A DNA stretch of 55,093 nucleotides, filler included, from Jimgerdemannia flammicorona (lineage: Eukaryota), in the NCBI GenBank assembly GCA_003990765.1. It is 3 parts of 3 records of this genome, joined end to end, with 100 filler letters (N's around TTAATTAATTAA, not from the genome) between each part and the next. Parts side by side here need not be neighbours in the genome. Positions count along the whole stretch, not along the records: positions 36,797 to 55,093 come from RBNJ01002247.1; 2 more parts are not named here. The stretch is one strand, 5' to 3'. A model generated the notes under the pieces. It did no database searches, was not told where the DNA came from, and saw only the letters and a program-made list of their open reading frames with translations. Position numbers and translations under genes: made by a program. Shown here piece after piece: positions 4,481-55,093 of the stretch (its first letter is position 1; every line of letters starts with the position of its first letter).

Positions 4481-4699
4481 ACTGATCTTCAGATTCTTCA
4501 TCTGTATCTTCTTATTCATCTTCTTATGTATTGTGAGCTTCTATGATCTTGTACTCTTGGTTCTTGATAGTAGTTATAAGTCCTACTCTCAACTGCTATC
4601 TGAAGGTAGAGACTTCTTCTATTGTCTGAAAGTAGTATTGATCTTCTGTTTCTTAAGATCCTTATAGATATCATACTGGTGGACTTTGGTCTTATACAG

Positions 4700-5900
4700 C
4701 TTCTGTTCTTTCTTACTTTTGCTTTCTTCTGAGACTAGAGTATATCTTTAATAATTTTATGGGCAGCTTCATCTAACTCTATGTCTTGATCAATCTCCTC
4801 AGATTGGATCTTACTTTGAATAGTAATAGCTAGAGTCTTCTTTAGTCTTCTAACTAGCTTACTATTACTCTTCTTATCATAAAGCTTAGATCATATTCTG
4901 GTAAGTTTAGTAACAGAGTAGAATTCAGACTTCTTAAGGTACTCTTCATTATTAGTATCACCAATCTCCTCAATGACTACTATATTGATATTCTGATAGC
5001 ATTACTTAGTTGGGCTCTGCACCTTGTTTTTGGTCATGTAATTCTTTGCATAGTGGTCTTCTTCTCCATATTTGAAATATATAATGGTACATTCCTCTGT
5101 AGTGACTGCAAACTTCTGCACTAATCTTCTGTTAGTACTTTATACTTCTCTAACAATATCATCAAAGTATTCAGTCATCTTGGCAAACTGCTGGATGAGT
5201 TTCTCTACTAAGTTAGCTTTAGCTATCTTGGGGATAGGTGGAGATAGTTGTCTGTTAATGACTGTGGTGGATATGATATTGATTGGCTTTAATGGCTCCA
5301 TCTTGATGCTAGTTATTCTTTTCATTGAGTTTTCAGCAGGGTGTCTAGTAGTCCAATATCTCTATAAAGACCACTTTCAGATCAAGAGTTAGAGCAGCTG
5401 AGATAGACTGGATTGCTAGAGCAATTTTATAATAAACTTTTTTTAGGAAGATTGAATTAGCTATCTATTCCTTAAAAGTATTATTATAACTAGCCAAGAT
5501 AATCTAATGACAGATTCAGATATAGAATGAGTTGGGATCTTCACTAAGTCTCTGGTAGATAGTATTAAATTGATCTTTAAAAGCTTACTTGATTCTTTAG
5601 TATAATATGTAGTTCTGAGGAAATTCTTTATATTGATAAGTTTGGCTGTACTAGCATTAGTAATAGTAGCTATATTGAACTTATCTCTGGTAGGTTCCCT
5701 GAGGCTGACTAGTTGAAGGGCCAATTGTATATCCATAGTGAGAGCTTATACAGTAGCAAATTTTTCAAAGTCTTCAATGAAGATCAGGATTGACTCTTCA
5801 GTAGTAAATCTATAGAATATAGAGGGATATATTTCTATCTTATCTTGAGTTCTTATAGGGGGTGACTCTTATAGTCAGGGTAGTTATTATAGTAGTTCAT
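4700..5900 (-). pseudogene. gag of Gypsy A
   Basis: ATG at 5900, EESILIFIEDFEKFA capsid-like start, and a zinc knuckle near 5040-5080 reading YFKYGEEDHYAKNY (Cys>Tyr by G>A). Confidence 0.75.
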
Positions 5901-5956
5901 TTTTTAGCTTAAAAGTGAGAGATTTGTTTTGAATTACCAGCTAATAAGTACTAAGT

Positions 5957-6471
5957 TGTCACATAGTAGGTACTGAGTCCTTTAAATATGTCAGATTCTC
6001 TTCAAGATATATCTCTTAGACTAAATACAAGTTTGTTATAAGCAAGTTCTTATTGGAGTACCTTTCTAAGGTCTTATAGTTCTTAATATTTTTATTTTTA
6101 AACTGTCTTGTTATCTCTTAGATTGCTTACATAGAATTGAGTATAAGTGAACTGAGGAAACTGAGAGAACTTGGTAGTTCCTGGACCTTGAGGTTTGGCA
6201 GGCAGTAGGTGTTTTTGTTTATTGTGAGTCTTTGAACTATTTTGGGATTTATGAGTCTTATTTGAGTTACTACTACTGTAGTTTCTTAGTTTTTCTTTTA
6301 TATTTCTTGAGATATCTATCTTATGGTTATGATGACTCATAGTTAGTCATCATTACTCATCTTATAGCCTAAGTGAGTTATACCCTATGATCTTCTTATG
6401 CTCTGATTTAGTAACTTATAAGAAAAAGCTATCACTTATAATAATATCACTATTCTGAGATCACCATTACA
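5957..6471 (-). repeat. 5' LTR of family A, internally deleted form
   Basis: Ends are tgtcac...ttaca. Colinear with 46807-47015 plus 48087-48382 but lacks the 1.07 kb between them. The left boundary is tentative. Confidence 0.7.
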
Positions 6472-6507: not shown

Positions 6508-7697
6508 CTCCTTTCTCCACTACCTTACTGGTCACAAGGTTTGGTAGATGACCTTCTGAGTCCCCTTTCCTCTATTATTACCCCCTCTACCTCAGGTTGG
6601 TTTGCTGTACCTGCAGGGGCATGGTGGGAGGAGGGCAATGGTGATGAGTTGCCCCTTTATTGGTGTCAGATCGGTGCTTCCTCCACTTTTTTGTGGATTC
6701 TGGTGTCTTCGGCTGCATCTGGGGTGTACCCGTTTTGGTGCGGCGCCTTCTTCCTTTTGCTGTCACCAACAAGATATTGTCTCAGTATATCTCAGGCTAC
6801 ATAGGGAGTCGGCTGACCTTGGGCATCAAGTGCTCAGTGTAGGTTATCTGCAGGTCCTCGGTATCTGTGGTGCAGCCCTCTGGCTTTGGCGAGCTTCCCA
6901 GCGAGCATGGTTCTGGTGTAGGTGACTGCTTTTCGGGTGTTGTCGGGATGGGAGGGGAGATGGCCATCACAGATAGGTGGAAGGGCATTTATGGTGGACC
7001 AGTAGGGTGCCAGGCTGGGGGCGGTCATCGGGGCTGGGGCAGGTGCTGCTTCGGTGGGGTCTTTTGATTGATGCGGTGTAGTTAGGTGGTAGGTATCACT
7101 ATTGGCTTCCTTTGGCGGTCAGTGGGGTTGGGCCCCAGTCATCAGGGGGGGTCAGAAGGCCCGAGGCTATCCATTTCAGGCATCTTGGCTGCACTCAACT
7201 GGAACCGAGAGCTGACATGGCAATATGATCAAGGCCTGCAGGCTTGAGTAATGGGGTATTGGGGGTTTCCTCCCACCTCACATGTAAGTCCTTTACTCAC
7301 CTCAACTGAGAGAACCAGGCCCTATCCACCGTGTTGTGCTTTGATGAGAGTTTTTATTTGCCTATCATTCTCTTTGGGGTGGCAGGGGCTATTCTATTTG
7401 GCTCGAGTATGGCCTTATACATATGTTGGGTTCTCAGGTGTGTGCTTTTGGTCATTAGCATATGGTTGGGTTTCCCCTGGTGGTAGGGAGAGTATGGTGC
7501 ACAGAATGAGGTGTGGGCCAACATAGGCCCTGCTGCACCTAGCATGGTCGAGCTGCTGGACAATAGCTAGCCTAGGTTAATGGGGGGGCAGTGCTTGGTG
7601 GGTGGTGGGGGAGGGTTTTGGCCTATATAGTTTAGGTTCCCTTCTAATAAAAATCTGTGGGACATGAGTCTGTTAAAAAAAAAAAAAAAAAAAAAAA
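6508..7697 (+). mobile_element. Non-autonomous poly(A) retroposon (about 1.17 kb), copy 1
   Basis: AATAAA near 7645, poly(A) at 7675-7697, and a 17-bp TSD ctatagtata(ta)[c/t]agct at 6493-6509 and 7698-7714. Further copies at 18400-19573 and 54470-55029. Confidence 0.88.
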
Positions 7698-14854: not shown

Positions 14855-14885
14855 AGGAGAGGTTTAATCTTTAACAATATTCCTC

Positions 14886-17600
14886 ATGAACAATATAACT
14901 AACATTTTCTCTCTCAATGTGAATGGTCTTCGAGGATCTGGGCAGTGTAAGAACATTTTTACATGGCTAAAGGGATTGGAGGCTGATCTCTTTTTACTGC
15001 AGGATGTACAGTGTGAGGATGAGGATGATCAGGTTGAATGGACTAGGGAATGGGGTGGGGCTACCACTTGGTTTGGAAAGGTAGTGATTCTGATAAAGAA
15101 GGAAAGAGGAGATTTGGAGGGGATCACAAACTGGGGAGATCGATTGGTCTGGGGTGAATGGTACCAGCCAGGGTGGGATTCAGTAAGGGTGGGCTCATGT
15201 TACTGCCCAGCAGCTAGGGGAGAGAGGATTGTGTGGATTAAGGAGCTACTGGAGGAGGGCATTCTCTTGGAGGAAGGGGTCGATGTTCTTGGTGGCGATT
15301 TTAATATGGTTCGAGATTTGCAGTTGGATAGGACTGATGGAGAAAGGAATGCCAGTGGGAGGAGTGGCAGTCTAGATGCATGGGAGGAGGTGGAAAACCT
15401 TAGCTCCTTAGAGGATATGGGCCAAACATAGTGGGGTGACACCAGGGTCTACATGCACTGGGTGAATGGCTTAGGGACAAGAATTGACTGGATTCTGACA
15501 GCTGAATGTTGGGGTGCTGATGTCTGGAAGACTTTGGAGGTGGTGTGGTGCCTGTGGTCTGATCACTGGGGACTGATTAGGCAGGGGCAGTTTGGGGGGA
15601 GTAGAGATGGACCCAGACATTGGTGTCTTAACTCCTCCCTGCTGGCAGAGAAGGGGTTGTGGGACTCATGAGTGGAGGACATACAGGCAAAGATCCCACC
15701 CCGGAGGCAGGAGGGTTTATCTGTGGGTGTCCATTGGATGAGATTGAAGGAGGCTGTAAGGGTTTATTGGGGTGGAGCTAGTAGGGAGGCAGGGAGAAGG
15801 AGGAGGAGGCAAATACAGTGTGCCTCAAATAGGCTGAGGAGATTGCAGTTTGAATGGGCAGATTTGCTTACATCTGATAAGGTAGAGGATTGGAGGTTAG
15901 AGAGGGTGAAATTGGAGGTTATAGAGCTGCAACAGGTGTTGCGAGAGGAGGAGAAGACTCATATGTGAGGAATGGCAGCCAGACTTAGATGGCAGGGACT
16001 TGAGGAGGGGGAGCAGCCTACTAGGTACTTGTCTAGGCTCCTTAAAGCCAGGCGGGTGAGGTATAGGTGAGATAGGATCTTGGATGCTGAGGGAGAGTTG
16101 GTGCATAGTATGCAGTAGATCCTGGGAGTATTGAAGGAGAATTGGCAGGGTCTGTGGAGTGAGGAAGAAGGGGGTGCTGATGCAGAGATGATTGGTAACA
16201 CACTGGAGGAGTGGGAGCCGCCATGGGTAGAGGGGCTGGGTGACTTGATCTTACTAGTCCAGGAGGAGGAGATACAGGGTGTCCTGGCAGTGACTAAGCT
16301 TGGGACGGCACCAGGAGAGGATGGATTACTGTGGGACTTCTGGAAGAAGATGGTGAAAGTCCCAGGGATGCTGGGAGAGATGGTGGCCCTCTGTGACCAT
16401 GTTCTTCTAAATGGCATGTGGGTTAGTGAGCAGGACTTAGGACTGGTTGCCCTATTGTACAAAGATAAGAGCCAGTGTGAGGATTGGAAGAACTGGAGGC
16501 CAATCATGCTTCTGGATATGGATTGGAAGTTGGTGACTAAGGTGATTGTTGCAAGGCTACAGAAGGTTGCTCAACAGGTGCTGGGGGAGGAGCAGAGGGG
16601 CTTTGTAGGTGGTAGACTTATCAGAGATAGAACTGCCTGGGTGCATGGCATTATTGAAGGAGCCCGGACCTGTGGACTGGATGGGAGACTGGTTTTTTTA
16701 GACCAGAAGAAGGCCTACGACCATGTTCGGCGGGTTTGGTTGGGCAAGGTACTGGACAGAATTGGCATTCCACCACAGTTTCAGGCCTCTATGTTGAGTC
16801 TGTTGGAAGGGAGTAGAGCGGTACTGATGTGTAATAGTTACAGGGGTTTGGCATTCCCCTTGGGGAGAGGAGTCCCTCAAGGGGACCTGCTGTCTCCTAT
16901 CCTTTATGCACTCTCCTTGGAACCTTTGATGGACAGGATCTGTAAGAGGGTGACTGGGCTCTTTGTGTATGAGGTGGAGTAGAAGGTGGGGGCCTTTGCA
17001 GATGATATAGTAGTTGGACTTGGATTAGTAGTGGATGTCGAGGCTCTTTGGGAAACAGTGGAGTGGTATGAGGCACACTCTGGAGCAAAGCTCAACTGGC
17101 ATAAGTATGAGATGATGGTGCTGGGGAATGGGCTAGTGGGAGGAGATGTCATTGTAACAATTGTCCCCTCAGGAGAGGTGGTGTGGTATCTAGGTATTTT
17201 CCTCTCTGTATATGGATCAGTCCTACCATGGATATGGTGGGAGAGGAGAGTGGACATTTGGGGAGAGGCTCTAAAAGGTTGGGGGGGTCATCACATCTCC
17301 CTGGCGGGGAGGGTGGCAATTATGAATATATACTAGTTCTCTAAGCTGTGGTATGTGGCATATCACTTAGAATTTCCCACTTGGGTGGTGAAGAGACTGA
17401 TGAAACTGGCTAGGGATTGGATTTGGGCTGGTAGAAGGGCCCAGATCAGTTGGGATACCCTTGTCGAGCCAGTGCTTAGGGGAGGCCTGGGCCTTGTTGA
17501 TTTCCCTAAGTGTCTACACTGCCTGCGAGCTTGGTAGTTGAGAAGGGCTGTTGATCTACAGGGTGGAGGTTGGGTGCCATTGATGAAGAAGGTGTGGGAG
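14886..17600 (+). pseudogene. LINE ORF2: APE endonuclease + reverse transcriptase
   Basis: SLNVNGL, GGDFN, RIDWI, SDH; APGEDGL, NWRPIMLL, FLDQKKAYD, GVPQGDLLSP, AFADD. Six ORF pieces all lie in the same frame. Confidence 0.93.
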
Positions 17601-18399: not shown

Positions 18400-19573
18400 T
18401 TTTTTAACAGACTCAAAGTCCCATGGATTTTTATTGGAAGAGGATCTAGACTATATAGGCCAAAACCCTCCCCCACCACCCATCAAGCACTGCCCCCCCA
18501 TTAACTTAGGCTAGCTATTGTCTAGCAGCTTGACCATACCAGGCACAGCAGGGCCTATGGTGGCCCACACCTTATTCTGTACACTATGCTCTCCCTACTA
18601 CTAGGGGAAACTCAACCATATGCCAATGACTGAAAGCATACACCCAAGAATCCAATGTATGTATAAGACCATGTTCGAGCTGAATAGAATAGCCTCTGCC
18701 ATTCTAAAGAGAATGACAGGCAAAGAAAAACCCTTATCAAAGTATAATACAGTGGGTAGGGTCTAGTTCTCCTAGTCGAGGTGAGTAAAGAACTTATATG
18801 TGAGACAGGAGGAGACCCCCAATATCCCACTACTCAAGTCTGCAGGCCTCAATCACATTGTCATGTCAGCTCTCGGTTCTAGTTGAGTATAGCTAAGATG
18901 CCTGAAATGAGTAGCCTCAGGCCCCCCAACCCCCCCTGATAACCAGGGCCCAATTTGCTAAATCACTAAAAGAAGCTGAGAGTGACACCTACCACCTAAC
19001 TATGCCACATCAATCAAAAGGCCCCACTGAAGCAGCACCTGCCCCAGCCTCTGACAACCACCCCCAGCCTGGCACCCTACTAGTTTACTGTTATCACTCT
19101 TCCTCTTATCTGTAATGGCCATCTCCCCTCTCATCCTGACAATACTGAAAAGTAGTCACATATACCAGAACTGTGCTTGCCAGGAAGCTCGCCAAAGCCA
19201 GAGGGCCCCATCACGGGTATCAAGGATCTGTAGGTAACCTATACTGAGTACTTGATACCCAAGGTCAGCCAACTCTCTACATAGCCTAAGATATACTGAG
19301 ACAGTACCGTGTTGGTGACAGCAAAAGAAAGAAGGCACTACACCAAAATAGATACACTCCAGATGCAGCCAAAGGCACCAGAAACTATGAAAAAGTAGAG
19401 AAGACACTGATCTGACACCAATAAAGAGGCAACTTATCACCATTGCCTCCCTCCCACTGCTCTGCAATAAGTATAGTAAACCAACTCAAGATAGAGGGAG
19501 TAATAATTGTAGAAAGAGGACTTGGAAGGTTGCCTACCAAACCATTGTGACCAGTAAGATAGTGGAGAAAGGG
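18400..19573 (-). mobile_element. Poly(A) retroposon, copy 2
   Basis: Full-length reverse complement of 6508-7680. The poly(A) runs into the gap. Confidence 0.88.
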
Positions 19574-37400: not shown

Positions 37401-38741
37401 CTAATAGCTTCTATTCTTTAATACTTTCACTTTTTCCTGAGACTGGAGTAGTATCTTTAATAATTTGGCAGGTAGCTTTATCTAACTCTATATTTTAATC
37501 AATCTCCTCAGGTTGGATCTTACTTTGAATAGTAATAGTTGAGATCTTTTTTGGTCTTCCAACTAGCTTGCTGTTGTCTTTCTTATTATAGAGCTTGGAC
37601 CAGGTTCTGGTATCTTCAGTAACAGGGTAGAATTTGAACTTCTTATAGTATTCTTCATCATTAGTACCACCAATCTCCTCAATGACTATAGTATTGATTT
37701 ATTCTCTAGTTCTGGTAGTATCACTTGGTTGCTATATCTTGTTTTGATTATGTAATTCTTTGTATAGTAGCCTTCTTCTCTATATTTGAAGTATGTGATA
37801 ATGCATTCCTCTATAGTAATTGTAAACTTCTGCACTGGTCTCCTGTTGGCACTTTATACTTCTCTAATAATATCACTAAGATATATAGTCATCTTGGCAA
37901 ACTGCTGAGTGAGTTCCTCCACTGGATCAGCTTTGGTCATCTTGGGAGTAAGTAGAGATAGTTATCTGTTAATGGCTATGGTAAGTATAATACTGGTTAA
38001 CTTTGATAGCTCTATCTTGATACCAGTTATTCTTTCTATTAAGTATTTGGCAGAGTATCTGGTAGTCTAATATCTCTATGCAAAGATCACTTTCTGATCA
38101 AGAGTCAGAGCAGCTGAGGTAGACCAGATTTCTAGAGCAATTTCATGGTGGACTTCTTTTAGAAAGGTTGAATTAGCTATCTGTTCCTTGAGAATATTAT
38201 TATAGCTAGCTAAGATAATCTAGTGATAGATTCAAGTATAAAATGAGGAGGAAGAAGGCCTAGCAGGAGCCAAGGGAGCGAACCCAGAGCCAGTGTCAAA
38301 GTGAATGGAAGACATGTGGAAGAGTGTGTATAAGGGGGACGAACAAAGAACATAACTGAAAATGCATCAGCTGTTTATTGCCACATAAAAATATAGTCCT
38401 TATATACAAAATACGACAACTCAAAAGGGAGGATGCGCCACAACTCGGGGCGAACTGAATTAGAAACCACATGACCACCGGAGATAGGCAGAGATAAAGG
38501 GGGAGCCAATCCCAGTTACAGGATAAAAATCACAAACAAACACAAACAAAAACAAATCCAAATTGAGATTAAAAAACATCTGCAGACCCTGGAGGGGTGA
38601 GCGTGAGCGAGGGGTGAGGCCGAAATGGAATGAGCTGCAGCGAGCCTGAGCGAAGCGAGGGGCCGAAGGCAGCGGAGGGGAGTGGAGTAAGGCCGAGACC
38701 CCGGAGTGAGCGCGAGACCCCGGAGGGGGCAAGGATGTTTT

Positions 38742-40816
38742 TTAATCCTCTCCAGCAGAACCGGAGGCACCAGAAGGTGATGAAAACGCAAAATGAGAGT
38801 GATGGATTGAAGAAGAAATAGAAGGAAGATGTGAACGAGCAATCAGAGGGCATCGGGAAAGAGATGAAAGTCCATGGCATGAAAGAGAAGAGTGCAGGAC
38901 GGTATCAGAGCATTGAGCAACCCAGCAAGCATGATCAAATGGTACAACAAGAATCGGGAGTGGGAAAGAAGAGGGGGTATGGAGAGGGTAAGGGGGGAGA
39001 GAGGGAAGAGAGGGAGGATAAAGAGGAGAGAGAAGGGTAGAGCGAACAACAGACCATTCAACAGAAGCAAGCAGATCACGAACAATAGAAATAGGGTAGG
39101 CACAACGATGGACCACGAAGTTGCCAAGAACCCGAACAGCAGACATCTAATCAGAACGATGGGAGTAGCATAGTACAAGACGACGAGCCTCACCCCGAAT
39201 GCATTCAAGAAGAGTGTGATGAGGATGATTGGACAAGAAGTCAGGGAACTATTGGGAACAGGGAAAACGAGAATAAACAACAGTTCAGAAAGGAGAAAGA
39301 GAAATGGAAAGGTCCAAAAAGGGAATACTAGTCATACCGCACACCCAGGTAATAGAATGGTGGGGAGGGTAGATGCCCAGGAATACACTAGGGATATCAA
39401 CACCAGCAATAGTAAAGACAATAAAGTCATCAATGTATTGGTGAAAGAAGATATCCTCAGCCCGGAACGCAATGGAAAGAGGTGAAGTAATATCACATAA
39501 TGCACGCAATTCGTTGGCCAGGCCGACAAGGTTGGTAAGGGTGGGGGCACAATTCATACCCATGGCAATACCAGAAGTCTGGTGAAAGGAGCCAAGGGCC
39601 GACTCAAAATAATTAGAGCTGCAGACGAGGAGCATAAGCTCAACAATGGAAGCCAGCGAAACTGGGGAATCCAAAGGAAAAACCAAGGAACCCAAGAAGC
39701 GAAGGCAGTCATCGATCTCATCAAAATGAATAGCAGTATAGAAGGAAGAGAAGTCACCAGAGGCCAAATGGGAAAAATGGTGAACAGGCACAATGGTGGA
39801 GCAGAGAAGGGCAAGCTCCTGAGTATCATGAAGAATAGTATACTCAGGCCCAAGATGGTGTTGTAAGAGAGCCATCCAGGAGAGAAAGAAGCAGGATAAC
39901 TACTTCGAAATCTCCATGGTAGGAGAACTGTAAGCAGCCGTAATAGGACGCCAAGCCAAAATAGGCTTGTGAACTTTAGGAAGAGCGTAGAAAACTGGAA
40001 GAGAAATATCCAGGGAGGACAAAGAGTCCTGGAAGAAGTTAAAAATGGGGTTCGTGAATGGGGAATCCGAAAGCGATCTAGCGTGAGCCAGAGAAACCCG
40101 AAGAAGAGTGAGAACCTCATCCAATCCAAGAGCACTAGGCTTGTAAGCCGTGGCTCGAAGGAGGGCAGAAAGGCCATCAAGGTAGAGCGACTTAGGAATA
40201 AGTGCAAAATCTTGATTCTTATCAGTGACTGTGAGCAAATGCATAGGCAATTGCTTGACCGATTTAAGCACAGTACGCACAGCACAGTCCGAAACCAAGC
40301 AAGAGTGAGTACGGACAGTGAGCAAGCCATGTCGAGGAATACACAGTGTGAAGAGACATTGGGAGGGGGGACCCAATCGCTAGGAACAAAATAGTGAGAG
40401 GGTATCTCACCACGATCTTGAAAGAAAATGGCAAGGTCAAGAGTACGACAAAAACGTGTTAGACGAGCCAGATCAGTGAAGGAGAATTGTAAGGGAGTCA
40501 CAGGAAAAACAAAGCGAGGACCCAAGGATAAGGCAAAGACTTGAAGGGGAGAAAGGGGGCAGTCAGCCAAAGAAAAAGGAGGAGACAAAAGTGTTCCAAG
40601 AGAAGAGTAAACCCGAAAATTCAGGACAAGCAACTGGGAAAGGCGAAGGGGGGACAGCATGAGGAACCACTCAGGGTATACTAGAAGCGATGACGGAATC
40701 CGAGAAGGGACGGGGACACCGGGGGAGAACCACGCCGGGGGGAAGTTTAAGAGCAGGAGGCCTTCCCCTTCCCTCTGACTTTTTTTGAAGATGGTGAACT
40801 CGACGAATAAGAGCAC
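38742..40816 (-). pseudogene. Penelope-like RT, unit 1
   Basis: TDKN, FYALPKVHK..AWRPI, GDFSSFYT, GIAMGMNCAP, YIDD, PFLDL. One small frameshift near 40320 and several nonsense codons. Confidence 0.9.
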
Positions 40817-41979
40817 ACCCTGTCAGAGTGCCAGACCTTGTGGCCACAGACTTTCATGCAGCCCTTACATTCAGGGGCACGGGGAGAGGAGGTGGAGGAG
40901 GAACTGGCGGAGGAGGAACTGGCGGAGGAGGCCGAAGGCGAGCGAGCAGTCGAAGGGGCAGCAGCATGAGGGACACCACCATGAGGACAGACAGACTTGG
41001 CCGGGTGCCAGTAGGCACGGTGGAGGCGACCGGAGCAGACAGCACAAGGCCAGGCCCCAACAGGGCGAGAACCAAGTTGGCGGCCACGCTTGGAGATAGG
41101 GGGAATAGAGGAGGAAGCCTTGGTGGGGGAGGGGGACCGGGAAGAGGCCGACGAAGCCTGGTTGGGCTTGGTGGGGGTCTTGGCGGGGGTCTTGGAGGGG
41201 GTCTTGGCGGCGGCAGCGGCAAAGGAACGAACCTCAGCACAAGCAGCAGCACGAGCTTTGGCACGGATTGCCTCGGAGACCGAAACCTTGGAAGAGATAG
41301 GCAGAGGAGCAGTGGCGGCGGCGCAAGCAGCGGCGGCAGCACGAGATGACTCCTGCTCGTGAAGGCGAGTAACAAAAGAGGTGCTGGTGAGGAGGAAGCG
41401 ATGTACAGCATCGATGTCAGCGGCGACAGAAGGAACGTCTTGGATGGCGAAGCCACAGAAGGGGGCAGCATCCGAAAGGCGAGAGGAGGCGAAGGCCACG
41501 AAAGCGGCACAGGCACGTTGGAAGGAGGCAGAAGTGGTGGCAGCGGAAGCAGCAGTGGCATCAGTGGCAGCGAGCTTGGCAGCGGCAGTAGCGGCACGGA
41601 CCTCTTTGGAGAGAGCTTGGTGGCGGGCCTTGGGGAGAACAGAGTAGTGGACGGCAGGCGGAGTGATGATATCGACGTCACAGTGGAGATGAGCCTCCTT
41701 GGCGGAGAGGGCAAGAACCAACCGGAACTGAGAGAGGAGCAGACAACCAGAAGGATGAAGGTCCAGAGGGAGGGAAAGGATGGCAGCAGAGACGTAGGTC
41801 TCAAAGGAGACAGTGGCGGGGGTGAAGACAGGGGGAGGGGGAGGAGAAAGTACCTCATCCATGAGCTCGTCGACGAGGACAGAGGCCCCGAGGGCAGGCG
41901 GTACAGCAGAGGAGGAAGAAGGCCCAGCGGGAGTCAAGAGAGCAAACCCAGAGCCAGTGTCAAAGTGAACGGAAGACAT
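40747..41979 (-). CDS. ORF1 of the Penelope-like element, unit 1
   Basis: Open frame of about 410 aa from the ATG at 41979. Ala/Ser/Pro-rich with two CxxC-x8-WH-x4/5-C motifs; also open in unit 2. Confidence 0.75.
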   Translation of the reverse strand: MSSVHFDTGSGFALLTPAGPSSSSAVPPALGASVLVDELMDEVLSPPPPPVFTPATVSFETYVSAAILSLPLDLHPSGCLLLSQFRLVLALSAKEAHLHCDVDIITPPAVHYSVLPKARHQALSKEVRAATAAAKLAATDATAASAATTSASFQRACAAFVAFASSRLSDAAPFCGFAIQDVPSVAADIDAVHRFLLTSTSFVTRLHEQESSRAAAAACAAATAPLPISSKVSVSEAIRAKARAAACAEVRSFAAAAAKTPSKTPAKTPTKPNQASSASSRSPSPTKASSSIPPISKRGRQLGSRPVGAWPCAVCSGRLHRAYWHPAKSVCPHGGVPHAAAPSTARSPSASSASSSSASSSSTSSPRAPECKGCMKVCGHKVWHSDRVCSYSSSSPSSKKVRGKGKASCS

Positions 41980-42405
41980 GTGGAAGAGCGTATATAAGGG
42001 GGACAAATAAAGAACATAACCGAAAATGCATCAGCTGTTTATTGCCACGTAAAAACATAGTCCTTATATACAAAATATGATGACCCAAAAGGGAGAATGC
42101 GCCACAACTCGGGGCGAACCGAATTAGAAACCACATGACCGCTGGAGATAGGCGGAGATAAAGGGGGAACCAATCCCAGTTACAGGATAAAAATCACAAA
42201 CAAATACAAACAAAAACAAATCCAAATCGAGATTAAAAAACATCTGCAGACCTCGGAGGGGTGAGCGCGAGCGAGGGGTGAGGCCGAAACGGAGCGAGCT
42301 GCAGTGAGCCTGAGCGAAGCGAGGGGCTGAAGGCAGCGGAGGGGAGCAGAGTAAGGCCGAGACCCCAGAGCGAGTGTGAGACCCCGGAGGGGGTAAGGAT
42401 GTTTT

Positions 42406-44490
42406 TTAATCCTCTCCAGCAGAACCGGAGGCACCAGAAGGTGATGAAAATGCAAAATGAGAGCAAAGGATTGAAGAAGAAATAGAAGGAAGACATGAAT
42501 GAGCAATCAGAGGGTGTCGGGAAAGAGATGAAAGTCCATGGTATGAAAGAGAAGAGTGCAGGATGGTATCAGGGCGTTGAGCAACCCAGCAAGCACGATC
42601 AAATGGTATAACAAGAATTGGGAGTGGGAAAGAAGAGGGGGTATGGAGAGGGTAAGGGGGGAGAGAGGGAAGAGAGGGGGGATAAAAAGGAGAGAGAAGG
42701 GTAGAGCAAACAACAGACCATTCAACAGAAGCAAGCAGATCACGAATAATAGAAATAGGGTAGGCACGATGATGGACCATGAAGTTGCCAAGAACCCGAA
42801 CAGCAGACACCCAATCAGAATGACGGAAGCAGCATAGTGCAAGACGACGAGCCTTACCCCGAACGCATTCAAGAAGAGTGTGACAAGGATGATTGGACAA
42901 GAAGTCAGGGAACTGTTGGGAACAGGGAAAATGGGAATAAACAACAGTTCGGAAAGGAGAAAGAGAAATGGAAAGGTCCAAAAAGGGAATACTAGTCGTA
43001 CCGCACACCCAGGTAATAGAATGGTGGGGAGGGTAGATGTCCAGGAACATACTAGGGATATCAATACCAGTAACAGTGAAGACAATAAAGTCATCAATGT
43101 ATCGGCAAAAGAAGATATCCCCAGCCCAGAACACAATGGAAAGAGGTGAAGTAATATCACATAACGCACACAATTCGTGGGCCAGGCCGACAAGGTTGGT
43201 AAGGGTGGGGGCACAATTCGTACCCATGGCAATACCAGAAGTCTGGTGAAAGGAGCCAAGGGCCGACTCAAAATAATTAGAGCTGCAGATGAGGAGCATA
43301 AGCTCAACAATGGAAGCCAGTGAAACCAGGGAATCTAAAGGAAAAACCAAGGAACCCAAGAAGCGAAGGCAGTCATCGATCTTATTAAAATGAATAGCAG
43401 TATAGAAGGAAGAGAAGTCACCAGAGGCCAAATGGGAAAAACGGTGAACAGGCACAATGGTGGAGCAGAGAAGGGCGAGCTCCTGAGTATCACAAAGAAT
43501 AGTATACTCAGGCCCAAGATGGTGTTGTAAGAGAGCCATCCAGGAGAGAAAGAAGCAGGATAACCACTTCAAAATCTCCGTGGTAGGAGAACTGTAAGCA
43601 GCCATAATAGGACACCAAGCCAAAATAGGCTTATGAACTTTAGGAAGAGCGTAGAAAACCAGAAGAGAAATATCTGGAGAGGACAAAGAGTTCTAGAAGA
43701 AGTTAAAAATGGGGTTCGTGAATGGAGAATCCAAAAGTGATCTAGCGTGAGCCAGAGAAACCCGAAGAAGAGTGAGAACCTCATCCAATCCAAGAGCACT
43801 AGGCTCATAAGCCGTGGCTCGAAGGAGGGCAGAAAGGCCATCAAGGTAGAGTGACTTAGGAATAAGTGCAAAACCTTGATTCTTATCAGTGACTGTGAGC
43901 AAATGCATAGGCAATTGCTTGACCGATTTAAGTGCGGTATGCACAGCACGGTCTAAAACCAAGCAAGAGCAAGCACGTCCAGGAACGGACAGCGAGCAAG
44001 CCATGTCGAGGAATACACAGTGTGAAGAGACATTGGGAGGGGGGACCCAATCGCTAGGAACAAAATAGCAAGAGGGCATCTCACCATGATCTTGAAAGAA
44101 AATGGCAAGGTCAAGAGCATGACGAAAACATGTTAGATAAGCCGGATCAGTGAAGGAGAATTGTGAGGGAGTTGCAGGAAAAACAAAGCGAGGACCCAAG
44201 GATAAGGCAAAGACTTGAAGGGGAGAAAGGGGGCAGTCAGTCAAAGAAAAAGGAGGAAACAAAAGTGTTCCAAGAGAAGAGTAAATCTGAAAATTCGGGA
44301 CAAGCAACTGGGAAAGATGAAGGGGGGACAGCATGAGGAATCACTCAGGGTGCACCAGAAGCGACGATGGAATCCGAGAAGGGACAGGGACACTGGAGGA
44401 GAACCACGCTGGGGGGAAGTTTAAGAGCGGGAGGCCTTCCCCTTCCCTCTGACTTTTTTTGAAGGTAGCAAACTCAATGAATAAGAGCAC
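42406..44490 (-). pseudogene. Penelope-like RT, unit 2 (no frameshift; stops near 44340 and 43693)
   Basis: FYALPKVHK, GIAMGTNCAP, RYIDD, FLDL, and FLSNHP...VRGKARRL (PLE thumb). Ends in a short Pro/Ser tail with no nuclease. Confidence 0.92.
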
Positions 44491-45650
44491 ACCCCATCAG
44501 AGTGCCAGACCTTGCAGTCACAGGCTTTCGTGTAGCCCTTATATTCAGGGGCATGGGGAGAGGAGGCGGAGGAGGAACCGGTGGAGGAGGCCGAAGGCAA
44601 GCGAGCAGCTGAAGGGGCAGCAGCACAAGGGACACCACCATGAGGACAGACAGACTTGGCCGGGTGCCAGTAGGCATGGTGGAGGCAACCGGAGCAGACA
44701 GCACAAGGCCAGGCCCTGACAGAGTGAGAACCAAGTTGGCGACCACGCTTGGGGGCAGGGGGAATAGAGGAGGAAGCCTTGGCAGGGGAGGGGGACCAGG
44801 AAGAGGCCGACAAAGCCTGGTTGGGCTTGGTGGGGGTCTTGGCGGGGGTCTTGGAGGGGGCCTTGGCAGCAGCAGCAGCAAAGGAACGAACCTCAGCATG
44901 AGCAGCAGCATGAGCTTCGGCGCAGATTGCCTCGGAGACCGAAACCTCAGGGGAGGTAGGCAGAGGAGCAGTGGCGGTGGCGCGAGCAGCGGCAGCAGCA
45001 CGAGATGACTCCTGCTTGTGAAGGTGAGCAACAAAAGAGGTGCCAGCGAGGAGGAAGCAACGTACAGCATCGATGTCGGCGGTGACAGAAGGAACATCTT
45101 GGATGGCGAAGCCGCAGAAGGGGGCAGTATCCGAAAGGCGAGAGGAGGCGAAGGCCACGAAAGCAGCACAGGCACATTGAAAGGAGGCAGAAGCGGTGGC
45201 GGCAGAAGCAGTGGTGGCATCAGCGGCAGCGAGCTTGACAGCGGCAGTAGTGGCACAGACCTCTTCAGAGAGGGCTTGGCGGCGGGCCTTGGGGAGAACA
45301 GAGTAGTAGACAGTGGGCGGAGCGACGATGTCGATGTTACGGCGGAGACAAGCCTCCTTAGTGGAGAGGGCAAGAACTGACCGGAACTGAGAGAGGAGTG
45401 GACAACCAGAAGGACGAAGGTCCAGTGGGAGGGAAAGAATGGCAGCAGAGACGTAGGTCTCGAAGGAGACAGTGGCGGGGGTGAAGGCAGGGGGAGGGGG
45501 AGAAGGAAGTACCTCATCCATGAGCTCATCGACGAGGACGGAGGCCCCGAGGACAGGCGATATAGCAGAGGAGGAAGAAGGCCCAGCAGGAGCCAAGGGA
45601 GCGAACCCAGAGCCAGTGTCAAAGTGAATGGAAGATATGTGGAAGAGCAT
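44421..45650 (-). pseudogene. ORF1 of the Penelope-like element, unit 2
   Basis: Open frame homologous to unit 1. The equivalent ATG is mutated to ATA and Cys>Tyr changes affect the second finger. Confidence 0.7.
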
Positions 45651-46055
45651 GTATAAGGGGGACGAACAATAAACATAACCGAAAATGCATTAGCCGTTTA
45701 TTGCCACATAAAAATGCAGTCCTTATATACAAAATAGATGACCCAAAAGGGAGGACGTGCCACAACTCAGGGTGAACCGAATTAGGAACCACATGACCAC
45801 TGGAGATAGGCGGAGATAAAGGGGGAGCCAATCCCAGTTGCAGGATAAAAATCACAAACAAACACAAACAAACACAAATCCAAATCAAGATTAAAAAACA
45901 TCTGCAGACCCTGGAGGGGTGAGCGCGAGCGAGGGGTGAGGCCGAAACGGAGCGAGCCACAGTGAGCCCGAGTGAAGCGAGGGGCCGAAGGCAGCGGAGG
46001 GGAGCAGAGTAAGGCTGAGACCCCGGAGCGAGTGTGAGACCCCGGAGGGGGCAAG

Positions 46056-46391
46056 GATGTTTTTTAATCTCAATTTGGATTTGTTTTTGTTTGTATTTGT
46101 TTGTGATTTTTATCCTGCAACTGGGATTGGCTCCCCCTTTATCTCTGCCTATCTCCGGCGGTCATGTGGTTCCTAATTCGGTTTGCCCTGAGTTGTGGCA
46201 CGTCCTCTCTTTTGGGTCATCATATTTTGTATATAAGGACTGCATTTTTATGTGGCAATAAATGGCTGATGCATTTTCGGTTACGTTCTTTGTTCATCCC
46301 CCTTATACATGCTCTTCCACATATCTTCCGTTCGCTTTGACACTGGCTCTGGGTTCGCTCCCTTGGCTCCCACTGGGCCTTCTTCCTCCTC
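46056..46391 (+). repeat. Inverted terminal arm (about 335 bp)
   Basis: Reverse complement of 38245-38580 and 45568-45902. Confidence 0.93.
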
Positions 46392-46806
46392 TGAGATCTT
46401 TGCTGAGTTCTTGGTAGATAGTATTGAGTTGATCTTTGAGAGCTTGCTTGATCTCTTTGATATAGTATGTAGTTCTAAGGAAGTTCTTCATATTGGCAAG
46501 TTTGGCTATACTAATATCAGCAATAGTAGTTGTATTGAACTTATCTCTGGCAGATCCTCTGAGGCTGACTAGTAGAAGGACCAATTGTATATCTACAGTA
46601 AGAGCTCATATGATAGCAAATTGTTCAAAGTTTTCAATAAAGGTCAGAATTGACTCTTTAGTAGTAAATCCATAAAATATGGGGGAATGTATTTCTATCT
46701 TGTCTTAAATTCTTATAGAGAGTGACTCTTGTAGTCAGAGTAGTTGTTGTAGTAGCTGTTTATTTTTTAGCTTATTTGTCTTGAATCACTAGCCAATAGG
46801 TACTAA

Positions 46807-48382
46807 GTTATTACATAGTAAGTACTGAGTCCTTTAAATATATCAGGTTTTCTTCAAGATATATCTCTTAAACTAACTATAAGTTTGTTATAAGTAAGTT
46901 CTTATTGGAGTACCTTCACAAGGTCTTATAGTCCTCAAACTTCTTATTTTTAAACTGTCTTGTTATCTCTTAGATTACTTATATAGAATTGAGTATAAGT
47001 GAACTGAGAGAACTGACTTTATTTTAAAGAAAATGAGAGGGATATTTATATAAAATATAATTCAATAGTTGCTAAGATATAAAGCTAAATATAAATTCCA
47101 ATAACCAAATAAATAAGATACTGAAATATAGAAAACTTTGGTTGTAAGTACAAATTTGAGTATCTGTATAAATAGTTGTATAAGTTTAGGATGTCAGTAT
47201 AATTTCAGTTATACAAGAAAAAAATACCTAAAGATTTAGATATTCAGATAAACAGTTATATAAGGAACTCAGAGCAGAATGTTCAGAATTCTAGAAGTTT
47301 TATCTTCATTACTATTATTAAGGCTAGAGGTCAGGATGTCTTTAAACAAAATGAAGTTGGCAAATATTTCATCCATTTTATATATTTCATATGTTGTATA
47401 TTTTGCATGCTTCATATATATATCACTAATTAGTAGAATGATATCATTGCTAATAATATCATTATAGATGATATGTATCATCACATTTAGTGGTAGAAGT
47501 AAAGAGATCAGGAGCTCTCTAATCTATGAGGTTCTTCTCTGCAAAGTAAAGGACAAAGGTAAGATCTTGAGGGGGTCTGACTTGAATATTGGGGCCTTGA
47601 AATACTTTGTAGAAATTGATCAGAATTGTCCTTGAGGATGGGATTCCAGAACTCTCCTATCTCATTATTTTTAAGAGTAATGGTAGATTGGGCTTCAGTG
47701 GCCACTATGATCTCTAGTACATTAGTATGGCAGGCTAACAACTCCTTGAAGTCTATAACTCTGGTATACTCCAAGTTGGGGATTGACCAAGGTATATATC
47801 TGAAGATCTGATAGATCTTCTTGACTACTCTCAATTTGTATATATTCATGAGAGTAACATCTTATATTTCTTAGAGACTGGTCTGAAGGAACTCCCAGTA
47901 GAGAAGGTTTCCTATTTCATATTTCTGCTATATCCAGAGATATTCAGTAGCAATATTGATTCTTATTTTAATTTTATAGTAGTCAAGCGATAAAGTGGTA
48001 AAAGTCACTAGTATCTAGGTTAAGGCTAGGAGTCTTTCTTATTCAGGTCCTCATAGCTCTCCTGATATCTTGAAATATCCTTTCTTAAACTGAGAAGCTT
48101 TGGTAGTTTCTAGACCTTGAGATTTGGTGGGCAGTAGGTATTTTTTAGTTATAGTAAGTCTTGTTTGAGTTACTACTACTACAGTTCCTTAGTCCTTTTT
48201 TTATATTCTTTAAGATATCTATCTTGTGATTATGATGACTTATGATGGCTTATAATTGATCATCATTGCTCATCTTATAGTCTAGATGAGTCATGCTATA
48301 TGATCTTCTTGTACTCCAATCTAGTAGCTTATAAGAAAAGACTGTCTTCTAATAATATTACTATTCTGAGGTCATCATTACA
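46807..48382 (-). repeat. Full-length family A LTR (about 1.58 kb)
   Basis: Contains both halves of 5957-6471 plus 1.07 kb with AATAAA (near 47020), TATA (near 47047) and an ORF remnant. Confidence 0.72.
47508..48080 (-). pseudogene. LTR U3 ORF homolog
   Basis: IFQDIRRA, LNLDTSDFYHFI, QKYEIGNLL and IYQIFRYIPWSIPNL match IFEAIKKA, LNFYTEDLGHFI, HDYEIGHRL and VHQIFCHIPWAIAHL of 21961-23061. Confidence 0.72.
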
Positions 48383-50179: not shown

Positions 50180-51815
50180 CTTAATCAATGACTCCTCTTT
50201 CTAGACTAATATTGAATTTTTTAGCCAGACTGCTTTATTCAGTAAGATAGATATATATTCCTTTAGGAGCTTATATTGTAATCCTGGTATACAGAGTTAT
50301 CTCTTTCTAATATATCTCACATTATACAAACTTATATCACCTACTCTTACACTATTATTTAGAGAAATATCTTAAGAATATATCCTCGAATTAGAGTTCT
50401 ATGGAGTATACTATCTATCCTGTCTAGTAATCTATTATATATTATATTAAAGTCACTCCCCAGACAGTCAATCTCCTTGGCTACCATAATACTTATATCT
50501 CTTAGTTCCCTTATCTACTCTACATACTCTCCTCTTTCTATTAGATAATAATATAACTCAATAGTCAACCAGTCTTCTCCACACTCTCTACACTACTCTA
50601 CCCCCCCAATGTCTAATGCTCCCAATATCTAGTTGCACTCTTCTGCCATTCACTATCTCAATTACCATCCTAGCCTTAAACTCCCTTCAGATCAGCCTCC
50701 TCTTCTCTACTACTCCTGCCAGATCCTCCAATATCTCCAGCAAGTTCTCCTCCTCTTTTAGTATCCCTTTCACTCTTGAGATCTTATACTCCACTGGTTT
50801 CCACTTCAGTACCACCAATCAATCCTGTTCTTTCTCAGTATTCTTCCTACCTATCAGCCTAACTCAGATATCTATATCTCTAGTCCTGAACTCAGTCCCT
50901 TCTTAGACTCAGAAGCCAACATCTATCACATTTCCATACTCCTTAATAATATCTACAATTAACCTCTTGGCTACCTTCTTTTTTACTATAGATACATTCA
51001 CTACTACTAGCTATATTACTCTGGAGTTCCAGTACAAATACTGAGCCATAGAAATTACTATCTCTCTCCTACTATTACTTCTTTCTCAAATGCTCTCAAC
51101 ATTAACTCTTTCTCCTCAAAGCTCACTTCCACTTCTTCAAGTTTCTTCAAGAACTTCACTGAAGCCACTTCTTTTATCTCCTAAGCCAGAAGGCTAAGAA
51201 CTATTTTTGCTATAACTGCCAAGCCTTGGAAGTACAAAGTAATGATAAATTCAGATACTAACTTCTTGAGTAATAGTACTACCACTAAACCTGTTATACT
51301 ATTAGCTAGGTCTCTAGACCTCATACCTCTCCCCAGCTTAACCCCACTATCAGCTATCATATCTGGACTTTTTTTCAGATTAATAGTCCTCTCTCTATTA
51401 GCAGTCTCACTCTCTCCAGCCCCTACTCTCTCAGTCCTACCACTACTGTCACCATAGGCCCTCCTATCAGACTCTACAGTCTCCTCCTTCTCTTTATTCT
51501 TCTATAGCCAACTCTTCAGTCCAGTTGCTAGATACTCTATCTTAACCTTATTAGCAAAGCTCATTCTTCCAGACTTCTGCCTGCTGGTCTCTTCTTGTCC
51601 ACTCTTTTAGCTATCAGTGAGAGTGTTCAGCAGGTTCTCTTCTAATCCATAACTCCTCTCTACATACTACTAGTTGAATATACTGGGGTCACTCTGCTCT
51701 ATATGCTCCTTAGAATACTTATTAATTACTATATTATTATTATCTTTTCTTTAAAAATGATATTGAAAGTATTGTCAGAAGTTTATATAATCTGAATTGT
51801 ATTAGAGAAAGATAA
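50180..51815 (-). mobile_element. Degenerate LINE relative of 12746-17660 (5' end + ORF1)
   Basis: 5' end atctttctc...tacaattca. The antisense peptide DTNFLSNSTTTKPV matches EINFLSNGATTSPV. More LINE-like debris probably extends to about 53300. Confidence 0.7.
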
Positions 51816-54469
51816 TTGTTGAACTTACTGACTCTGTCTCCTCTCTCATGAGAGCTTATAGAGCTCTCCTCTATACTATTCTCCCTACTTAGTATACTTC
51901 TCTAAGTTTTAAGTTACTAATATACTACTAGTATATTTCTTTAGAAAACTATATCAAAAAAGTTGAGAATTTATTATATAATATAATCTAAGTAATAGCT
52001 GAGAAAGGTGTGTCTTATATTACTTCTCTTATTAGCTATTGTTATTAGTCTATAAACTTCCTAATATCTATCTACTATCCTCTATTAAAGATATATTTTT
52101 AATAAGTAACTATCAATATCTAAACATTAAAAATCTACTCAATATCTCTCTATAAGTTGCCAATCTTCTCCACCAACTCTCTCCTAACTACTATCTCAAC
52201 TACTTCCCCTATACCTCTATCACTAGAGCTCCAAAATACCTCCAGGCTTTACTAATAGTCTTTTACACCTGAATAGTCAGCTATAATATGATCTGATATC
52301 TGCATCTCTCTATTCTAGAGGTCTGTAAACTACTTACAATCATAATAGCCCTCAGTATCTATTTAGCTAGTCTTATATTTCAATATTATATTTCTCTTTA
52401 AAAACTATTACTATATCACTTAGTATCTAAGTAGTACTACCCTATATAATATATTAATATAGTACTATATTTCTTCCTACTCTTAAGTTTTATCAATCTG
52501 AGTCTTCTACTAGTCAACTGGTTATCTCTCTAAAGGTCCTACTTATATCTACTCTATTGTCTTCTCTAGTAAATATTTCTCCAAGCTCCTATCCTCAATC
52601 TGGGGCAACTTCAGTCTCTATCACTTTTTTTTCAGAATTCTCACTATCCTCTACCTCCAGCTCTATTAGCTCTATGATCAGTTAGGCCTCTACTATTTTC
52701 TATCAAAATCTCTTATATATATCTTAACCTATTTATACTCTCTACCTGGAGCAGATCTCTCAAGTCCTACTACTCTACTCTATAAGAGTAGAACCTGATC
52801 TTCCAATTGTTCATAGCTAGTCTACCTAACCTCTTCTCTCTAAAGTTCATCAATCTTTACCTCCACTATCTTCTCAGTACTATTAAAAGTCCAATAGTTC
52901 CAAACTACTATCTATTATCTATAATACCACTGTCTCTTAGCTAATTTGTAGCTACTTCTCTCTTTATAGAAAAGTCTAAATAGTAATCTAAATATCATAA
53001 CTTTGATAATTAATAAATATTCAAAACTACTACTTTGTCTACTAGAGAAAAGTTCTTCTCTAACTACTATATTAGAGCCTTCTCTCATTTTAGTACTATC
53101 TCTCTCTACTATTTCTTAGATAGAACTATCCTATAAACTAAGAATCAGATATCCAGATATTAAATTATTTTCTCAGTAGTTACTATTTATTCAAACCTCT
53201 CTATCTCTTCCAGATCTATACCAATCTCTATTATCTTATACTTTCTCTAGTTCAACTTTATCTCTACTATCTTCTCATATTTCTTAATCTCTTTATATAA
53301 GATCTCTATATTCTTTTTATATTCTAGATCAATTACTATACTATCTATAAAAGCTTTCAGCTTCCAAACTACCTCCTTTATCTATAGTCTAGCTAGATAT
53401 AGATCATTATTATTATCATATATATCTCATTATTGAGTGCTGAAATAATAAATAAAATACTCTATCTAATCTTTAACAGTTTATCTACTATTTAGAACAG
53501 TTTGACCAGTCTGTCTATTTATATAGAGAGCAATTATCCCAACTTAAAAATTCTATTTAGTTAATAGTTAAAAAAAAAAATTTAAAAAAAAAGTATTTCA
53601 AATTACAGAATCTCTTCTCTCTTATTAAATTGATCTTTTATCTTATATATCTCTTTACTAAGTTGCTCCTCTTTCTTCTTACTAAGTTACTTTTCCTTCT
53701 TCTCACTAAGCTGATTCTTTTTCTTTTCAGATAATATAGGAGATATATTATAATTTATTCTAAAATTAATAATAAGTTTATCTTTTCTTTTAATATTTAA
53801 AACTCCTTAAAGTTTATTATCATTAAGTCTAGTAATTCTCATAATATTATAGACTGAATGAGTCTTATTTATCTTTTTTTTTATATAGTATTATAAGAGA
53901 TTTCTAATAATGAGATTAATATTTCTTTATATTATTTATTAGTTAAAATCTAGTTATCTATCTATTATATCTTATAAGCTAATAGTTAAAATTATATAAT
54001 ATATATTTTAAGTAAAGGTTTTTTATACTTTCTCTTATAAATATTAAAAAGATTAATATAATTCTCCTCTGATATCTTCTTCTAAAGATATAAATTAATA
54101 TCAAATATTGAGAATTTATTTGCTTAATATAGAAAACTATCTAAAGACTCTAGTTCTGTTTTTAGTATCTCTTATTTGGCTTCAAATTTCTTAAGAAGAT
54201 AGAAAGTATATATATTTCTTTCTACTTATAGTTATTAGTTACTAAACTTCTATAAAAGTAATAAAAAAATTTATCTTAAGAGAAAAATAACTAGTATATT
54301 TTTGAATAATAAGAAAAGTATCTACTACTTTCTTTGATAGAGATATATTAGATAAAAATGAAGGATGCTATATATTCTTATACATATTATATAATATTTG
54401 AAATATTTTATAAATCTTAATTTCTTATTTTTGAAAAAGAAATTTACCTATATACATATAAATAATAAG

Positions 54470-55026
54470 CTCCTTTCTTCACTATCTTACTAGTCATAAG
54501 ATTTGATAGATAATCTTCTAAGTCCCCTTTTCTCTATTATTATCCCCTCTACTTTAGGTTGGTTTGCTGTATCTGTAGAGACATAGTGAGAGGAGGACAA
54601 TAGTAATGAGTTGCCCTTTTATTAGTATCAGATCAGTATCTTCTCTACTATTTTACAGATTCTAGTATCTTCAGCTATATCTAGAGTATATTCATTTTGA
54701 TATAGTGCCTTCTTCCTTTTGCTATCACCAACAAGGTATTGTCTTAGAATATCACAGGTTATGTAGAAAGTCAGCCAACCTTGGACATCAAGTGCCCAGT
54801 ATAGGTTATCTATAAGTCCTCAGTATCTATAATAAGACCCTCTGGCTTTGACAAGCTTCCCAGTGAGCATGGTTCTGATATAGGTGACTGTTTTTTGAGT
54901 ATTGTTAGAATAGAAAGAGAGATGGCCATCACAGATAGAAGAAAGGGTGATAATGGCAAATCAGTAGGGTGTTAGGCTGAGGGTAGTCATTAGAGCTAGG
55001 GCAGATACTGCTTTAATAGGGCCTTT

Positions 55027-55029
<3 letters not shown>
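54470..55029 (+). mobile_element. Poly(A) retroposon, copy 3 (5' half)
   Basis: Matches 6508-7068 from the same 5' start. It is cut by a T run at 55030-55093, probably the tail of a minus-strand retroposon. Confidence 0.85.

Positions 55030-55093
<64 letters not shown>

Follow-up and report, generated by a model that had tools for sequence, protein, structure and literature searches.

Coinciding outer termini and a palindrome pivot in a Penelope-like insertion of Jimgerdemannia flammicorona

Layout of the insertion and its target

A stretch of 55,093 nt from Jimgerdemannia flammicorona (here called the window; all coordinates are positions along this whole stretch) contains an insertion of about 8.1 kb that is built from copies of a single Penelope-like element (PLE). 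The insertion spans 38245-46391 (46393 including microhomology), and the sense strand of the element is the minus strand. It comprises two units of ~3.66 kb, a 503-bp 5′-truncated copy and a 336-bp inverted copy, which follow one another in the sense direction as inverted piece (46393-46056), truncated copy (46069-45568), unit 2 (45567-41909) and unit 1 (41908-38245). The two full units and the truncated copy stand head to tail and thus form a partial tandem with pseudo-long terminal repeats (pseudo-LTRs, or pLTRs), while the inverted copy, also 5′ truncated, adjoins the 5′ end of the array and keeps an intact 3′ terminus (46056-46393). At the end of each unit, a perfect 14-bp inverted repeat encloses a GC-rich spacer of 153 nt, and a further 322 nt lead to a boundary that we refer to as X. 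A blastn search returned no further copy of the element anywhere in the window outside 38245-46393. The parts of the insertion, its flanks and a paralog of its target are as follows.

37406..38247, no strand assigned: left flank, a decayed host repeat (80% match to 4698-5531; junction alignments)
38245..41908, minus strand: full unit 1, the 3′-most in the sense direction (blastn with unit 2 over 38245-41907 at 91.6%; open reading frames [ORFs]; RVT_1 match), with decayed ORF1 and reverse transcriptase (RT) frames, stem-loop and a terminal segment of 322 nt; at low coordinates it finishes in the element 3′ terminus X, which abuts the left flank
41909..45567, minus strand: full unit 2 (ORF calls, blastn, domain searches)
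45568..46069, minus strand: third copy, a 5′-truncated direct pseudo-LTR of 503 bp made up of arm, 153-nt spacer, arm and 322 nt to X (blastn of unit positions 1-505 against 45566-46069, 91.9%; alignment)
46056..46393, plus strand: inverted pseudo-LTR copy, a 14-nt arm and 322 nt to X (inverted pairs; blastn of 45566-45902 against 46393-46056, 93.8%); a second 3′ terminus of the element forms its outer end, and the arm at 46056-46069 is common to it and the direct copy
46392..47016, no strand assigned: right flank, the same host repeat continued (84% match to 5533-6164; junction alignments)
4698..6164, no strand assigned: paralog of the target repeat that carries no interruption and serves here as a proxy for the empty site (flank matches, junction alignments)

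The initial annotation had described an ~8.1-kb insert with terminal inverted repeats of about 335 bp, and we recovered these repeats as 38245-38580 against 46056-46391 (336 bp, 91%). It had also placed both ends of the insert at the same element position. This is borne out to within 2 to 3 bp, with the array starting at 38245 and the inverted arm ending at 46391 (46393 with microhomology). Both outer ends are outward-facing element 3′ termini at X, 70 to 82 nt inside ORF1. The structure is real and was correctly described.

Both junctions carry microhomology. At the left, GAG at 38245-38247 is common to target and element, leaving a 3-bp ambiguity, and at the right, TG at 46392-46393 is shared in the same way (2-bp ambiguity). 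In the paralog the two flanks abut at 5531/5533, such that the insertion left no target-site duplication and a loss of 1 bp at most. Since the flanks are contiguous in the paralog, the whole 8.1-kb complex, inverted arm included, occupies a single target point. The junction alignments revealed no 30- to 40-bp "tail," an optional feature of PLEs in the literature, at either element end, and the ends differ by merely 2 to 3 bp. Likewise, no telomere-like tandem repeat was present at or near either terminus in the tandem-repeat listing (8 rows). The copy is interstitial, lying within the host repeat at 38 kb and 9 kb from the ends of the window. Adjoining the paralog of the target repeat, decayed retroelement frames at 2333-3781 (minus strand) match RVT_1 (2726-3094) and dUTPase (3239-3781). 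Given this adjacency, the target of the PLE insertion is probably an LTR-type retroelement.

The split palindrome and divergence among copies

A perfect 14-bp inverted repeat, GATTAAAAAACATC/GATGTTTTTTAATC, with a 153-nt spacer had been noted previously in the element, and it is present three times.

38567-38580/38734-38747 (38567-38747): split palindrome of unit 1, 14-bp arms, 153-nt spacer
42231-42244/42398-42411 (42231-42411): split palindrome of unit 2, 14-bp arms, 153-nt spacer
45889-45902/46056-46069 (45889..46069), no strand assigned: split palindrome at the pivot, 14-bp arms, 153-nt GC-rich spacer

With spacers of up to 400 allowed, this is the longest perfect inverted repeat of the unit and the only sizeable palindrome there, and a length of 14 bp was reached in 0 of 300 dinucleotide-preserving shuffles. 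The stem appears in the minimum-energy fold of the single-stranded DNA (z = −3.4) and in that of the sense RNA (z = −1.6). Since 16 of 200 shuffles fold as well as the sense RNA, the spacer itself is not notably structured. The TAA stop of the RT frame falls within the first arm of the palindrome (ORF end 42406). By eye, the spacers (38581-38733, 42245-42397 and 45903-46055) appear to carry a short motif, approximately GAGACCCCGGAG on the plus strand, at both ends, with a third copy just inside.

The third copy tracks copies 1 and 2 through 46069, the last base of the second arm, and past this point the sequence is the reverse complement of the stretch preceding the first arm, as seen in both the alignment and the inverted pairs. 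The inversion thus pivots on the built-in stem, as the initial annotation had it. The oppositely oriented copies meet head to head, and their overlap is exactly one 14-nt arm. On the plus strand, all three loops are collinear with one another, so the spacer of loop 3 is oriented like the long array.

Short inverted repeats are known to nucleate fold-back inverted duplications, and a pivot at an inverted repeat is what would be expected if a break or stalled fork in the array had folded back on the 14-bp repeat after insertion, producing an inverted duplication unrelated to retrotransposition. However, fold-back repair would give an arbitrary outer end and a lost or duplicated flank, whereas the outer end of the inverted segment coincides with the terminus of the element itself and is directly followed by target DNA that, judging by the paralog, continues the left flank with at most 1 bp missing. 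Insertion at a single point makes a later rearrangement of this kind very improbable.

We asked whether variation among the copies bears on the source of the inverted arm. Units 1 and 2 are 8.4% different, with 282 transitions and 3 transversions between them. The two units disagree at 194 of 466 inferred CpG cytosines, compared to 2 to 11% in other contexts, and no preference for TCG was seen. The pattern suggests that repeats in this genome undergo strong CpG-directed (methylation-type) hypermutation. Given that mutation is dominated by CpG, parallel hits are common, homoplasy is heavy and any signal that groups the copies is weak. Of 336 aligned columns, 21 distinguish the inverted arm from copy 3, while 29 distinguish it from copy 1 and 30 from copy 2. 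At 17 sites that divide the copies two against two, it sides with copy 3 at 10, with copy 2 at 4 and with copy 1 at 3, so that 7 of the 17 conflict with the first grouping (P = 0.027 in a one-sided binomial test and 0.08 by chi-square). Pairwise divergence is similar across all copies, at 6 to 9%, and the four 336-bp arms do not form a star.

The initial annotation had argued that the inverted arm lacks variants private to the adjacent copy and resembles the leftward copies. The three named variants (2 transversions and a 1-bp deletion) are indeed private to copy 3, but the inverted arm is nearest to adjacent copy 3 and not to the leftward copies. With transitions so prevalent and mostly at CpG, variants are an unsound guide to the template of the inverted arm, and we rejected identification of that template from shared variants as weak and subject to heavy homoplasy. 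Separately, within the 336 bp of the copy 3 arm (45568-45902) there are 2 transversions and a deletion of 1 bp, compared to 3 transversions over ~3,650 bp in units 1 and 2, a local excess of nontransition changes in this arm of the palindrome.

The same comparisons bear on two further explanations. In one, two successive events built the locus: an 826-bp symmetric insertion (copy 3 plus the inverted arm) came first and two units later homed into the boundary between pseudo-LTR and flank, or the order was reversed, which would imply that tandem and palindrome differ in age or source. The division of the arms into copies 1 and 2 versus copy 3 and the inverted arm, with shared derived states on both sides, agrees with such a history. 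However, that division is weakly supported, all copies are similarly diverged (6 to 9%), a second precise event would be needed at the same point, and the 826-bp palindrome would still require another mechanism, and we regard this history as improbable. In the other, the structure is an assembly artefact, for instance a read made chimeric by fold-back, or a tandem that was collapsed or expanded, and assemblies are known to have difficulty with the tandem and inverted structures of PLEs (PMC8557442). Nevertheless, 21 of 336 positions distinguish the two arms and the units are 8.4% divergent, indicating distinct genomic copies rather than duplicated reads, and the outer end of the inverted arm falls where it makes biological sense and is continued by collinear flank. 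Together, the single-point insertion and the 6% divergence between the palindrome arms leave an assembly chimera barely credible.

Coding capacity and lack of a detectable nuclease

Four reading frames or domains were delimited in the full units.

44421-45650, minus strand: ORF1 of unit 2, which begins in the upstream pseudo-LTR
40747-42006, minus strand: ORF1 of unit 1
43693-44334, minus strand: RT N-terminal domain, which aligns to the pre-RT region of 8 relatives (E values of 6e-7 to 7e-4)
42406-43686, minus strand: RT and thumb, 426 amino acids (aa), with relatives identified by protein search

The ATG of ORF1 at 45650 lies 82 nt before the boundary at 45568, and that at 41979 lies 70 nt before the boundary at 41909. 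The pseudo-LTR therefore holds the first codons of the ORF, and X lies inside it. The product of ORF1, at ~410 aa, is rich in Ala, Ser and Pro and has two Cys/His knuckle-like motifs near its C terminus; it returned no match in Pfam and none among 153 collected proteins of PLE relatives.

A single close relative of the 426-aa RT was identified (P0001, 45% identity) alongside numerous distant ones, with 1,626 relatives at an E value of ≤1e-3 in a phmmer search. In unit 1 the RVT_1 match lies at 39285-39875, and on the decayed ORFs the Pfam RVT_1 model scores below its cutoff (17.9 and 23 bits versus 29.6). A GIY-YIG domain lies C-terminal to the RT in 10 of the best 76 relatives scanned (of the 1,626) and also in P0003. 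Because relatives bear GIY-YIG in this position, we assign the RT to the PLE type. Furthermore, the Atlas neighbors of the RT, mostly from rotifers, carry HTH_animal and RVT_1. These neighbors, the GIY-YIG-bearing relatives and the pre-RT alignment to 8 relatives agree with the earlier description of the element as Penelope-like.

The element had also been described as lacking a nuclease, and accordingly 0 of 52 sense-strand ORFs of ≥40 aa matched GIY-YIG at an E value of ≤1. The RT ORF stops ~100 aa past the RT core, in the palindrome arm, as GIY-less relatives do. Relative to the end of the query, the C-terminal ends of GIY-less relatives lie mostly at −36 to +7 aa and those of GIY-bearing relatives at +116 to +170 aa. 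In a midpoint-rooted FastTree phylogeny of 61 sequences, with branch supports uninspected, the query groups with GIY-less sequences in a clade separate from the GIY-bearing cluster. No hammerhead family was found among Rfam matches at an E value of ≤1 across 37500-47000 on both strands, although CpG decay could mask a former motif. The Rfam matches to RybB (27.5 bits versus a gathering threshold of 40) and SIB_RNA (22.9 versus 56) are below threshold and were judged to be due to chance. A sequence search of the PDB with the RT gave 0 matches at an E value of ≤1. Three metagenome loci (L001 to L003) matched the RT over just 36 to 42 aa (E values of ~3e-4) and were unmatched by P0001 to P0005, and we set them aside as uninformative. 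Altogether, the locus is an old, heavily CpG-mutated insertion of an apparently endonuclease-less PLE with standard PLE architecture, a clean example of a known pattern.

Origin of the inverted copy

A typical PLE insertion consists of a partial tandem with pseudo-LTRs and an adjacent inverted 5′-truncated copy, and the mechanism that builds such insertions is still called undefined (Craig et al. 2021, PMC8557442). In Penelope elements of Adineta vaga, the direct and inverted pLTRs share a 15-bp overlap, palindromes of 18 bp and 38 bp lie at the 5′ edge of the pLTR, pLTRs include the first 12 aa of the ORF, and some copies have no target-site duplication and show microhomology at their junctions (Arkhipova et al. 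2013, PMC3846280). From palindromes at the inverted junction, that study proposed self-priming. The initial annotation had presented the locus as evidence for a new programmed hairpin route. Its layout, however, is already textbook PLE (PMC8557442), and both the palindrome and self-priming were published in 2013 (PMC3846280). Given that the locus matches the features in that paper (the overlap, the palindrome at the 5′ edge and the start of the ORF within the pLTR), the self-priming idea is a rediscovery.

The closest parallels are the endonuclease-bearing (EN+) Penelope elements Pen2a_Av, Pen2_Av and Pen3a_Av of A. vaga (PMC3846280). As in those elements, direct pseudo-LTRs (two there) are accompanied by one adjacent inverted copy, the inverted and direct copies overlap (by 14 bp here and 15 bp there), a palindrome lies at the 5′ edge of the pLTR, and the first ORF codons lie inside it. 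Absence of a target-site duplication and junctions with microhomology are shared with some of the A. vaga copies. Unlike the A. vaga elements, which carry a C-terminal GIY-YIG, no such domain was found here. Furthermore, a 153-nt spacer splits the palindrome here, such that the direct copy exceeds the inverted one by 167 bp, and there are two full units and no 30- to 40-bp tail.

Self-priming, as applied to this locus, would have the 3′ end of a long cDNA, located at the second arm, fold onto the first arm and copy back to give the inverted arm. Several observations agree with this: the pivot coincides exactly with the stem, the stem forms in the fold of single-stranded DNA (z = −3.4), the spacer is oriented like the long array, as the model needs, the inverted arm is nearest to its would-be template, adjacent copy 3, and the idea is already in print (PMC3846280). 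The similarity to copy 3 is, however, statistically weak (P = 0.03 to 0.08, with 7 of 17 sites in conflict), recurrent CpG hits dominate mutation, and the arms of a palindrome are prone to gene conversion. More problematic is the endpoint. The initial annotation had second-strand synthesis run back to the start of the cDNA, yet the long cDNA starts at 38245, 7.8 kb away, and copy-back would have halted after 322 nt, at the unit-equivalent position 45568. Self-priming gives no reason for copy-back on a 7.8-kb cDNA to stop at that distance, and a stop within 2 to 3 bp of the canonical terminus among ~3,660 possible positions is left unexplained. A hairpin-ended product would also require an extra step to join the right flank. 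We therefore consider self-priming of the long cDNA unlikely. The variant in which a short cDNA from the right end snaps back is excluded, as it would reverse the spacer, yet the orientation of loop 3 matches that of loops 1 and 2.

The best explanation, to which we assign a probability of roughly 0.45, is that reverse transcription was primed from both sides of the target at the fixed site X and that the two cDNAs annealed at the 14-nt arms. What the locus establishes is geometry, namely, the termini, the pivot, the 14-bp overlap and insertion at a single point, and from these we infer the steps of priming and annealing. Both 3′-OH ends of a broken or doubly cut target would prime reverse transcription at X on a multimeric element RNA. 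The top-strand 3′-OH, on the left flank, would give a long cDNA running from 38245 towards 46069 (2.14 units), and the bottom-strand 3′-OH, on the right flank, would give a short cDNA of at least 336 nt running from 46391 towards 46056. Both cDNAs would be antisense, so that pairing would be possible solely at the self-complementary segment, between the second arm of the long cDNA and the first arm of its short counterpart. Once annealed, either cDNA could act as template for extension of the other's 3′ end, yielding the observed duplex with both flanks joined. Use of a fixed start site from both sides would account for the coincidence of the two termini. The coinciding termini thus fit two-sided priming best, rather than programmed snap-back, although one locus cannot decide between them.

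In twin priming of L1 elements, both target strands prime cDNA on the element RNA, and the cDNAs are joined via short complementarity to produce an inversion; the internal position at which the second primer anneals is variable, such that junctions and the inner end vary. Unlike this process, two-sided priming as proposed here would use one fixed start site for both primers and join the cDNAs at a built-in palindrome. No paper in the collection searched links the inverted pseudo-LTRs of PLEs to twin priming, and the three in which both terms occur are, by their titles, not about PLE structure.

Two-sided priming has a biochemical precedent in a purified PLE protein. Purified protein of Poseidon PAc, from Anolis carolinensis, extends the top and bottom target strands with the same start site on both, and reverse transcription starts at fixed internal sites 111 to 118 nt into the ORF of the multimeric RNA (Frangieh et al. 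2024, PMC11167929). Similarly, X lies a short way into the ORF here, and two-strand extension would give coinciding outer ends. PAc differs in having its own nuclease and a hammerhead ribozyme, and the joining of inverted copies was not addressed for PAc (PMC11167929).

Several points weigh against two-sided priming. The case rests on a single locus and one decayed copy. A single RNA species predicts that the inverted arm should be the twin of copy 1, yet it is closest to copy 3 (10:4:3; 21 differences versus 29 to 30). This resemblance is better explained by copy-back from copy 3 or by later gene conversion between the palindrome arms, and two separate events would likewise predict it. The element has no nuclease of its own that could provide 3′-OH ends on both target strands, and the biochemical precedent is an EN+ element. 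Finally, no hammerhead ribozyme was detected, unlike in most PLEs, although Naiad and most Chlamys PLEs are also without one (PMC8557442).

PLEs that lack an endonuclease (EN−) provide further comparisons. The telomere-associated Athena and Coprina share with the present element a PLE-type RT without an endonuclease, and they depend on preexisting DNA 3′ ends (PMC8557442, PMC13159263). However, those elements lie at chromosome ends and have reverse-complement telomeric repeats and hammerheads, while the present copy is interstitial and neither feature was found. Some EN− families, termed "PLE-X," occur within EN+ clades and, like the present element, insert within chromosomes (genome-wide in Chara and specifically in 28S in Selaginella); they have a CxC motif and canonical hammerheads (PMC8557442). 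PMC3846280 states that EN-deficient PLEs do not share Penelope-type organization.

It is conceivable, though doubtful, that a lineage of endonuclease-less PLEs inserts at interstitial breaks, with both broken ends priming at the same RNA site and the stop-codon palindrome serving as a functional "cDNA zipper." If so, cDNAs of like polarity would pair at the split palindrome and each would prime the second strand of the other. Such a zipper would account for the head-to-head inverted pseudo-LTRs that have long been a puzzle in PLEs generally, and EN− PLEs could share Penelope-type architecture, contrary to the statement in PMC3846280. The locus adds a tidy example, with an exact pivot on a palindrome, identical outer termini and an empty-site stand-in without target duplication, and the element and its nearest relatives are apparently without a nuclease. 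As a single decayed copy, it is illustrative and not decisive. Recurrence of the pattern in other copies would favor two-sided priming with annealing over self-priming and would extend Penelope-type architecture to endonuclease-less elements.

Other repeats were also observed in the window. At 13535-17333 (plus strand) lies a decayed non-LTR element of the long interspersed nuclear element (LINE) type, with an Exo_endo_phos endonuclease at 14868-15428 and RVT_1 at 16119-16979. This element is GC rich with a strong skew of G over C and has a distant inverted relative at 51111-51375. The Atlas neighbors of both the PLE RT and the LINE RT fall in animal clusters (rotifers, cnidarians, molluscs and chordates), which we treat as leads only. 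A further repeat of ~0.6 to 1.2 kb occurs three times (6506-7680, 18400-19572 and 54468-55031) at 76 to 82% identity, one of them inverted, and these copies may be terminal repeats of other elements.

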